Source: Escherichia coli O157:H7
GTDB taxonomy: Bacteria > Pseudomonadota > Gammaproteobacteria > Enterobacterales > Enterobacteriaceae
NCBI RefSeq assembly: GCF_013167455.1
Contig: NZ_CP038328.1
DNA length: 64,000 nt
Reading direction: 5' to 3' (one strand)
The translations under genes were made by a program, and so were the position numbers. The first letter of the stretch is position 1. Each line of letters starts with the position of its first letter. Under the pieces are notes generated by a model. That model ran no database searches, had not been told where the DNA came from, and saw nothing but the letters and a program-made list of their open reading frames with translations. This document shows positions 29,275-31,616 of this stretch, piece by piece.

Positions 29275-30027
29275 TCAGATTCCCTGGTGAGTAAGAATTT
29301 TACTTTCTGAACTCCTCTGAGAGTATTGACTTGGAGAAACACCAAAATAACGTCTAAATACATAAGTAAAGTATGAGACACTGGCATAACCACAGACCTT
29401 AGCTACTTTACTAATAGGATAACAACGAGTGCTGAGTAAATATTCAGCCATTTGCATCCTCTCATCAAGTATGATCTTACTGAATGATACCCCCTCTTCT
29501 TTCAATTTCCTCTTTAGTAAACTTTCGCTGAGATATAATCTTGATGATATATCCTTAAGACGCCATGGTGCAGATAAATCCGTATGAATAATCGTTTTAA
29601 CTTTAGCCCCTGTGCTTTTCAAACATCCAAACAGAAATACTCCAAATTGTTTTTCAGAAGAAAATGCAGAGAGACATGTAAAAGCAATAGACTCATCAAA
29701 AATTTCTATGTATTCAGCACAGTGATTAGCCCAACTAATTAATCCTTTAATTAAACTGAAGTCAGCAAAGTTTATTTTTAAATAAGATGGATATTCCCTA
29801 CAATCAGAAATATCCCTTAAGTTATTAGCTTTCAAATAGCGACTAATAAACTCAGCGCCAAAATCCGCCACTATCACTCTTTCAGGATATGTCAGGAAAA
29901 AATCTCTAGAGCTAGAGTCGACAAGTACAGATGAACCTCTCTCCAGAAACACACTCTCTTTTCCGAAATAAACATCAAAGGACTCCAAAATCAATATAAC
30001 TGAACATGTAGTTGCCATATCATCCAC
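29275..30027 (-). CDS. AraC-family transcriptional regulator (AT-rich, horizontally acquired)
   Basis: C-terminal dual HTH region (ISKVAKVCGYASVSYFTYVFRRYFGVSPSQY); 250 aa. Confidence 0.7.
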   Translation of the reverse strand: MDDMATTCSVILILESFDVYFGKESVFLERGSSVLVDSSSRDFFLTYPERVIVADFGAEFISRYLKANNLRDISDCREYPSYLKINFADFSLIKGLISWANHCAEYIEIFDESIAFTCLSAFSSEKQFGVFLFGCLKSTGAKVKTIIHTDLSAPWRLKDISSRLYLSESLLKRKLKEEGVSFSKIILDERMQMAEYLLSTRCYPISKVAKVCGYASVSYFTYVFRRYFGVSPSQYSQRSSESKILTHQGI

Positions 30028-30842
30028 CCAATTTAACTGAAACCAGGATGAAGTATATGTATATAAAGTTCACTTTGCCAAACTTCAGTATAAAAAACCA
30101 CTAAAAATAGGGTGTGATAAAAAATACCGTAACAATAAAGCAAAGGATTATAAATTCCGTTACAGTTACAAATGATACTCAAGAAACAATTCCTTAGGAA
30201 AAACTTATTTACAGCCAATAAGTAAGACACTTATATGATATCAAGTTTTCATAAAACATAACTAGGCTAAATAGCTGCGCCTAATACCGCTACACTTTTG
30301 CCAGCCCATGTTTGCCTCCGGGTATTGACCCCTTCTCTACGCAACTTCAGTTCCCACCACCAACTTTGCGGCAGCTTTGTAGGATCAATGTCTAAAAGAA
30401 TAATGGTGACCGATAAGAAAACGACTGAATAACTGCAGATTTTCGCTCGAAACCTTCCTGTCAGATCCATAGCGAATCAAGTGCTGAATGTCACAGTATC
30501 GAACAGAAAACAGTGACGATCTAACCCTTCAAGAATATTCTACGATTGTTCTGTTTAGGAAAAGCAAGGCGGGAAGTCGGGAGATAAGTCATTGATAAAG
30601 TGGCGGAGAGAGGGGGATTTGCCCCCCCGGTAGAGTTGCCCCTACTCCGGTTTTCGAGACCGGTCCAATCATCAAACGAAACATAAAATTAATTCACATT
30701 ATGAGGAAAAGTATCTTTTTTGTACTATGTAAATTCAAAGACTTAGCCTCATTTCCCCGATGATTTTCTCAACACTACTGGTTGTGAGCCCTTGCAATGT
30801 TCATTAATATACGTCTCACGAATAATTCATAGATATTGCAAA

Positions 30843-31616
30843 ATGGATATTACTGAGTTTCCTTCTGGAGTAATTGAACACCTTGGCTGGTATGTATACC
30901 GATTGATTGATCCGAGGGACGGAAGCACCTTCTATGTAGGGAAAGGCAAAGGTAACCGCGTATTTGCCCATATGCGCGGTGAAGTGGCAGCGACTGATGA
31001 TGACGAGTTACTGAGCAACAAGCTAAAGCAAATTAGAGAAATAAGGTTAGCAGGACTTGAGGTTATCCATGTCATCCATCGACACGGAATGACTGATGAA
31101 AAGACGGCGTACGAAGTCGAAGCAGCACTTATTGATGCCTACCCTGGGTTAACGAATATCATGAATGGTGCTGGCAGCAATGAATTCGGCGCCGCGCATG
31201 TCAAAGAGTTGATAGCAACATATCAACCCGAAACCATAACATTTCATCATAAAGCATTAATGATTTCCGTTAACAGAAGTGCAAAGGATTCAGAGCTTTA
31301 TGATGCGGTTCGATTTAGCTGGCGCATTAATGTCTCTCGCGCCAGCCAAGCAGAAGTCATTCTTGCTACTGTAAGGGGGATCGTTCGAGGGGTTTTCATT
31401 GCTGATAAATGGCTCAAATCAACACGTGAAAATTTCCCTACGATGAAATACTGGGACGAGGATCCGGACTTTGAGGCAACACAAAGTTCTCGCTATGGTT
31501 TTGAAGGTCGAGAAGCCCCACCTGAAATAGCAAATCTTTATCTTGGAAAAAAAATACCAGATGAATTAAGAAAAAAAGGAGCTATGTCCCCGGTCCGTTA
31601 CTCACCTAATTTTTGA
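30843..31616 (+). CDS. GIY-YIG domain protein (putative nuclease) with uncharacterised C-terminal domain
   Basis: N-terminus [29 protein letters not shown] matches the GIY...YVG motif; start taken at ATG 30843. Confidence 0.5.

Follow-up and report, generated by a model that had tools for sequence, protein, structure and literature searches.

What brings together, in the DNA between the attachment site of a satellite element and the tail-fibre end of a prophage, an AraC-family regulator and a protein with a GIY-YIG nuclease motif, and does either of them have a known role? We address this question in a window of 64,000 nucleotides from the Escherichia coli O157:H7 chromosome, in which the ORF scan bears out the two genes named in a preliminary description of the sequence, the AraC-family gene on the minus strand and the gene for a 257-aa GIY-YIG protein on the plus strand, with Pfam and NCBIfam confirming what they encode. 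We hold with high confidence that the GIY-YIG protein is the known CMoRE, a type IV nuclease directed against T-even phages, and that its AraC-family neighbour is PatE, an independent moron. Both genes have already been characterised in E. coli O157:H7, and the locus is therefore one already known. The finding adds little to what is published, as the structures, mechanism and phage-challenge data of CMoRE come from the same serotype and the PatE regulon has been described. The RefSeq label of the nuclease is still no more than 'LEM-3-like GIY-YIG domain-containing protein', and readers of genomes can thus be expected to go on rediscovering CMoRE.

The nuclease gene lies at 30843..31616 on the plus strand and encodes WP_000355484.1, the accession that carries this label. 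Pfam recognises a LEM-3-like GIY-YIG domain (PF22945) at residues 28-110 with an E-value of 3.6e-14 and returns no match for the C-terminal ~150 aa, while NCBIfam holds no model, and hence no housekeeping family, for the protein. The identification comes from full-length comparisons. The PADLOC profile for PD-T4-3 (PDLC04031) aligns from residue 1 to 256 against profile positions 1-255 of 256 with an E-value of 2.4e-140, the protein also matches phrog_5356 (E 2e-143), and the chains of PDB entries 9U75 and 9U8D, deposited as "E. coli O157:H7 CMoRE", are identical to it at 253 of 257 residues (98.4%). Two further entries, 9U7U and 9U7Z, show ~88% identity when read off the printed alignment. 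The 'GIYxY-YIG' motif reads WYVYRLI...FYVGKG in the window protein, with Y17, Y19 and Y31 present in the numbering of PMC12923530; the tetramer-interface residues V92 and L96 and the sensing-domain residue Y127 are likewise kept, and the acidic run of the autoinhibitory loop (residues 52-55) reads DDDE, as against DDDD in 9U75. The preliminary description had offered a nuclease effector, of the kind found in phage defence, as one of two readings of this protein, and that reading is borne out by the PADLOC match, the identity to PDB 9U75 and the published work (PMC12923530, PMC9519451).

The properties of the published protein are known in considerable detail. PD-T4-3 was first found in strain ECOR68 by Vassallo et al. 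2022 (PMC9519451), an attribution taken from papers that cite that study, and it was renamed CMoRE by Liu et al. in Nature Communications 2026 (PMC12923530; PDB 9U75 and 9U8D), whose study is the source of the following observations. Expressed from its own promoter, CMoRE of O157:H7 reduces plating about 10^5-fold for each of the phages T2, T4 and T6 without abortive infection, and it is active alone in BL21 from that native promoter (PMC12923530). DNA containing 5hmC or glucosyl-5hmC is degraded while DNA with C or 5mC is spared, and correspondingly T4(hmC) is restricted and T4(C) is resistant; cleavage follows a CN11/N9G pattern and leaves 2-nt 3' overhangs (PMC12923530). The crystal form is a tetramer, its C-terminal domain binds 5hm-dCTP with a backbone contact at Y127, and its nuclease domain is structurally nearest to UvrC, while the sensor domain has, according to its authors, neither sequence nor structural homologues (PMC12923530). 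A 15-residue acidic loop over the GIY-YIG active site is autoinhibitory, and replacement of its four acidic residues by alanine renders the enzyme toxic and able to cut ordinary DNA (PMC12923530). The system is also active against Tevenvirinae in a native clinical isolate (bioRxiv 10.1101/2024.12.20.629700), and a homologue with 48% identity is modification-dependent (PMC12366544). Applied to the window, this work suggests that a CMoRE tetramer would bind DNA bearing 5-hydroxymethylcytosine or its glucosylated form through the C-terminal sensing domain, that the GIY-YIG domain would then cut at CN11/N9G, and that the acidic loop over the active site would exclude ordinary host DNA, so that incoming genomes of the T2/T4/T6 type would be degraded directly, without abortive infection. 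These steps were shown for an O157:H7 allele four residues away from that of the window.

The AraC/XylS-family gene occupies 29275..30018 on the minus strand and encodes a 247-aa protein, WP_000246059.1, from the RefSeq start at 30018; a GTG at 30027 offers an alternative start, giving an ORF of 250 aa (29275-30027). The protein carries an AraC-type C-terminal HTH of the YdeO/GadX kind, and its nearest NCBIfam models are YdeO (E 3e-43), GadX (E 8e-32) and HilD. As it falls below the equivalog cut-offs, it is a relative of YdeO and GadX and not either protein itself; it also matches phrog_1450. In strain EDL933 the same accession is the sole AraC gene in the stretch from thrW to the P4-like element (CP-933H/O-island 8), and the order of genes there, pin, GIY-YIG gene, AraC gene and IS fragment, is that of the window. 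The gene z0321 is recorded as a 'putative regulator (prophage CP-933H), OI-8' (PMC2907692), and z0321 is PatE, an RpoS-dependent AraC-like activator of the acid resistance genes gadE, gadBC and hdeAB that also represses some LEE genes (PMC10877973; described by Bender et al. 2012, as cited there). As WP_000246059.1 is the only AraC gene of CP-933H in EDL933, we take the AraC protein of the window to be PatE, a match to z0321 made by position and sole candidacy rather than through the Z-number. The similarity to YdeO and GadX fits a role in acid resistance, and between the window protein and the EDL933 protein, which share one RefSeq accession, no difference is detected.

How the two genes came to lie side by side can be read from the DNA between and around them. 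They are divergent and separated by 824 bp, an interval that resolves into a patchwork when aligned to K-12 and to the other contexts in which CMoRE occurs. From the patE side, AT-rich DNA of the patE segment gives way to a 56-bp scrap of an IS630-family element (30267..30322) that matches annotated IS630/ISEc33 transposase genes, followed by 278 bp of displaced yodB-serU intergenic spacer (30323..30600), near-identical to K-12 and to strain MB15, whose first 38 bp match the ~1.9-2.0 Mb region in most E. coli genomes. Next comes a 66-nt 3' fragment of serU (tRNA-Ser) on the minus strand (30601..30666), which runs from the CCA end to the anticodon loop in alignments to K-12 serU and MB15 and carries two T-loop substitutions at 30622-30623. 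Homology breaks at 30666|30667, the att junction of the prophage tail module, and the remainder of the interval, a leader of 176 bp (30667..30842) ending at the start codon of CMoRE, is prophage DNA. This leader is conserved in all aligned CMoRE contexts (the O157 window, TW14359, AR_452, MB15 and pMTY18781-4) and presumably holds the native CMoRE promoter; a scan for consensus sigma-70 promoters upstream of CMoRE found no strong site within the 176 bp. Base composition also varies across the locus, with a GC content of 35% for patE, 44% for the CMoRE gene and 54% for the prophage.

The flanks supply the history of this arrangement. On the CMoRE side, convergent with it, lies pin (31677..32231, minus strand, RefSeq; ORF 31677-32276), a pinE-type serine invertase that marks the tail-fibre end of the prophage, with the invertible tail-fibre genes beyond. 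On the patE side lies a C-terminal fragment of an IS3-family transposase (about 28799..29233, plus strand) with an integrase core domain, a RefSeq pseudogene containing an ORF at 28868-29233 and assigned to this family on the annotation of its intact relatives. Beyond it is a 46-nt 3' fragment of thrW (tRNA-Thr; 28475..28520, minus strand), an exact match to the last 46 nt of the complete gene, and then the P4-type integrase (27131..28363, minus strand), next to which this thrW fragment forms the 'satellite att'. The window and the sequence of strain F8092B differ by a 1-bp offset located upstream of this integrase. ARAGORN finds no complete tRNA in the window, and both att scars are partial tRNAs recovered by alignment. 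A complete thrW together with an integrase lies just beyond the window, anchoring the whole O157 prophage at thrW, and the 46-nt repeat is the att repeat that separates this composite prophage from the P4-like satellite. Both patE and CMoRE therefore belong to the larger element that runs from the full thrW to its fragment, and patE alone sits in IS-scarred DNA outside the 30666|30667 junction. At the true serU locus of strain MB15 the order is yodB, spacer, serU fragment, CMoRE, pin and tail genes, with no AraC gene, which identifies CMoRE as the cargo gene that closes the tail module, its start lying 176 bp within the att junction. Since a serU scar and its spacer are found here within a prophage anchored at thrW, the right arm must have been carried into the thrW-resident prophage by recombination, along with a piece of its former host flank, leaving IS scraps at the joint, and it is recombination and IS activity that placed patE beside CMoRE. 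The locus is thus an example of a prophage arm changing tRNA sites and dragging host flank along with it. The preliminary description had both genes stranded between the satellite att and the tail-fibre end of the prophage, which holds for patE but not for CMoRE, a gene lying within the prophage's own att junction. The 3.3 kb around both genes is 100% identical in many E. coli O157:H7 chromosomes.

The two genes are transcribed divergently with 824 bp between them, and of 5426 complete E. coli genomes 412 have them side by side; one might suppose that they form a two-gene module in which PatE controls the nuclease. We regard this as very unlikely. CMoRE is found in 822-837 of the same 5426 genomes (822 at a coverage of at least 80%), against the 412 in which both are adjacent, and the patE segment is found in 644. 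CMoRE occurs without the AraC gene in MB15 and pMTY18781-4, and also beside unrelated DNA, and patE occurs without CMoRE, accompanied by the IS3 fragment and beside stf/tfa, at the attLambda (bioA-ybhB) end of lambdoid prophages (E92, E166). The interval through which such control would have to act is made of the IS630 scrap, the displaced spacer and the serU att scar, and CMoRE alone, driven by its native promoter, is active in BL21 (PMC12923530). Given a patchwork spacer, independent distributions and published single-gene activity, a regulator-effector module is ruled out as the reading to adopt by default, and regulation of the nuclease by the AraC protein was rejected on the distribution and the make-up of the spacer. 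A search of homologous loci for co-occurring genes, proposed in the preliminary description, likewise found no partner conserved across the contexts inspected, and CMoRE is in this respect a single-gene system. The preliminary description had treated the regulator and the nuclease under one title; their adjacency is real, and a functional pairing finds no support, the two being neighbours by accident.

The nuclease itself could be read in other ways. The preliminary description's second suggestion was a selfish endonuclease, that is, a homing enzyme like I-TevI, which propagates by cleaving unoccupied target sites, and a weak N-terminal match to the phrog_314 'homing endonuclease' family (E 0.0021, residues 17-149) and the annotation of jumbo-phage homologues as 'putative homing nuclease' point that way. 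CMoRE has the GIY-YIG catalytic core in common with I-TevI and the Seg proteins, but it lacks the NUMOD, IENR1 or HTH DNA-binding module of such enzymes, Pfam finding the GIY-YIG domain only; it is present at a median of one copy per genome; and the inspected contexts place it at the prophage end by pin, not inside or beside a target gene. Furthermore, the near-identical published enzyme depends on modification and not on sequence, follows only the loose CN11/N9G pattern and defends cells against phage (PMC12923530). A homing endonuclease is on these grounds highly improbable, and the suggestion did not survive. Even less can be said for a conserved housekeeping or repair enzyme of the UvrC/Slx1/LEM-3 kind, to which we give practically no credence. 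The RefSeq product name and the structural proximity of the nuclease domain to UvrC (PMC12923530) are what would recommend it; against it stand the occurrence of the gene in no more than 837 of the 5426 E. coli genomes, the prophage DNA seen in all contexts inspected, the lack of an NCBIfam housekeeping family and the published function of phage restriction (PMC12923530). The preliminary description had named such an identity as the result that would overturn its proposal, and it was rejected on the patchy distribution, the prophage location and the published restriction. What remains to be weighed is whether the window allele behaves as the crystallised one does. O157:H7 genomes carry two CMoRE alleles at one locus, 3.5% apart in nucleotides. 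WP_000355475.1, that of EDL933 and TW14359, matches the PDB chain at 100% identity, and the methods of the CMoRE paper name this accession (PMC12923530); it has the same length and architecture as the window protein, and the EDL933 copy sits at the same chromosomal position by pin and patE. From window to crystal form the substitutions are T51A, E55D, Q169K and N197H, of which only the last two fall in the C-terminal domain. As T51 and E55 lie in or beside the loop whose four-alanine mutant is toxic, the window allele could have a leakier lid, another modification range or no activity at all. We judge this unlikely, since residue 55 retains its charge whether it is E or D, the alleles differ by 27 nucleotides of which 23 are synonymous changes and four non-synonymous, as expected under purifying selection, and the window allele is widespread outside O157 (AR_452, MB15 and HB-Coli0), which argues for a functional protein. 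From the presence of all published functional residues together with this pattern of substitutions we infer that WP_000355484.1 has the same activity as the crystallised allele.

CMoRE thus identified, its position can be compared among related prophages. All inspected CMoRE contexts adjoin pin, and wherever the flank is readable they lie at the att-proximal prophage end. We sampled 79 IMG/VR contigs encoding close relatives of Pin and counted the 69 that extend 900 bp or more beyond the end of pin, a sample biased to the closest Pin proteins and not a census, in which the slot downstream of pin holds CMoRE in 29, McrA in 11 and a Dcm-type methyltransferase in 9, with smaller numbers of Ppl-like, SIR2/ThsA-like, Septu PtuA, PD-T4-6-like kinase and PDC-M66B genes. 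The defence genes found here lend support to the premise, taken as given in the preliminary description, that the tail-fibre end of prophages is a defence hotspot, and in e14-like prophages the end nearest pin behaves like a slot for interchangeable defence genes. Whether the pin-to-att slot of e14-like prophages with a Mu-type tail is a formally undescribed hotspot, exchanging CMoRE, McrA, Septu, SIR2/ThsA-like genes, the PD-T4-6-like kinase and the Dcm-type methylase, is a proposal that we advance tentatively, its chances falling slightly short of even; the two O157:H7 alleles would then reflect recent replacement of the cassette or of the arm.

The closest parallel to this arrangement is McrA of the K-12 prophage e14, in which mcrA comes after the tail module ymfQ-stf-tfa-pinE and before attR. 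McrA is likewise a single-gene type IV nuclease dependent on modified cytosine, and its gene stands last, between pinE and the att end; CMoRE, following the same ymfQ-stf-tfa-pin module, sits in the slot that mcrA fills in e14. The two proteins do not form a joint cluster in the BLASTP comparison, mcrA is co-directional with pinE whereas CMoRE is convergent with pin, and e14 integrates in icd and not in serU or thrW. McrA is an HNH nuclease that targets 5mC and 5hmC and is blocked by glucosylation, whereas CMoRE accepts ghmC and not 5mC. In specificity CMoRE also recalls the PvuRts1I/AbaSI family, whose members recognise 5hmC and ghmC and cut about N11-13/N9-10 between two modified cytosines to leave short 3' overhangs, using a nuclease fold of the PD-(D/E)XK type and an SRA-like sensor. 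This analogy, drawn from general background, is one of function only: the cut distance matches the CN11/N9G pattern of CMoRE, and the fold of CMoRE is a different one.

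The slot between the pin invertase gene and the prophage end varies in content, as seen in the region downstream of pin in the IMG/VR pin contigs (L014-L092) and in the e14 element of K-12 (L012:6686-8180). CMoRE, the GIY-YIG type IV restriction endonuclease gene, occupies this slot in 29 of 69 contigs, McrA in 11/69 and a Dcm-type methylase in 9/69, with Ppl-like, SIR2/ThsA-like, Septu PtuA, PD-T4-6-like kinase or PDC-M66B genes found there in fewer. Several other slot gene clusters in the pin contigs, including those encoding proteins of 343, 432, 178 and 280 aa, had no PADLOC match.

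Among O157:H7 genomes a single locus holds two CMoRE alleles, which share 96.5% DNA identity (window 30843-31616 compared with L002:6001-6774 and L011:11505-12278, the loci of TW14359 and EDL933 type) and are paired with differing downstream prophage states. The window-type allele is followed by a prophage of roughly 35 kb with head and tail genes, and the allele of EDL933 and TW14359 by a deleted prophage in which the tail fibre is directly joined to lambdoid replication genes. In the window's stretch from about 51400 to 53700, a phage HNH endonuclease gene beside the terminase is broken by an IS1203/IS629 copy, and an iss/bor-type serum-survival lipoprotein gene adjoins the lysis cassette (about 53398-53691).

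At window 30323-30666 lie 344 bp of chromosomal DNA from the serU locus, comprising the yodB-serU spacer and the 3′ part of serU, the latter with two T-loop substitutions. This DNA was moved to the thrW locus along with the prophage arm, and its transplantation is the mark of an inter-locus recombination event. In strains E92 and E166 the AraC-family regulator gene patE is again accompanied by the same IS3-family fragment, both lying at the attLambda end (bioA-ybhB) of lambdoid prophages (L009:4255-5785 and L010:4255-5785), which suggests that the IS fragment and patE together form a transferable unit.

The P4-like satellite carries in its cargo slot a Lamassu-like system, assigned by PADLOC as LmuA, LmuC and LmuB (window 23852-27128, minus strand), whose genes RefSeq labels as 'ABC-three component system' proteins. 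LmuB is broken into three ORFs that match profile positions 3-199, 231-412 and 428-608 of 610, no more of LmuA than its C-terminal part (141-333 of 336) falls within one ORF, and the integrase-adjoining ORF is frameshifted in the window by comparison with strain F8092B. The satellite's system looks decayed.

Full-length homologues of CMoRE (38-45% identity, 97-99% coverage; phage records H96-H112) occur in the genomes of lytic jumbo phages that infect Serratia, Pectobacterium, Pantoea, Klebsiella and Pseudomonas, including Serratia phage Moabite (NC_048792.1, 6406-7161) and Pseudomonas phage OBP (NC_016571.1, 158703-159449). Annotated as 'homing nuclease' or hypothetical, these homologues could play a role in phage-versus-phage competition.
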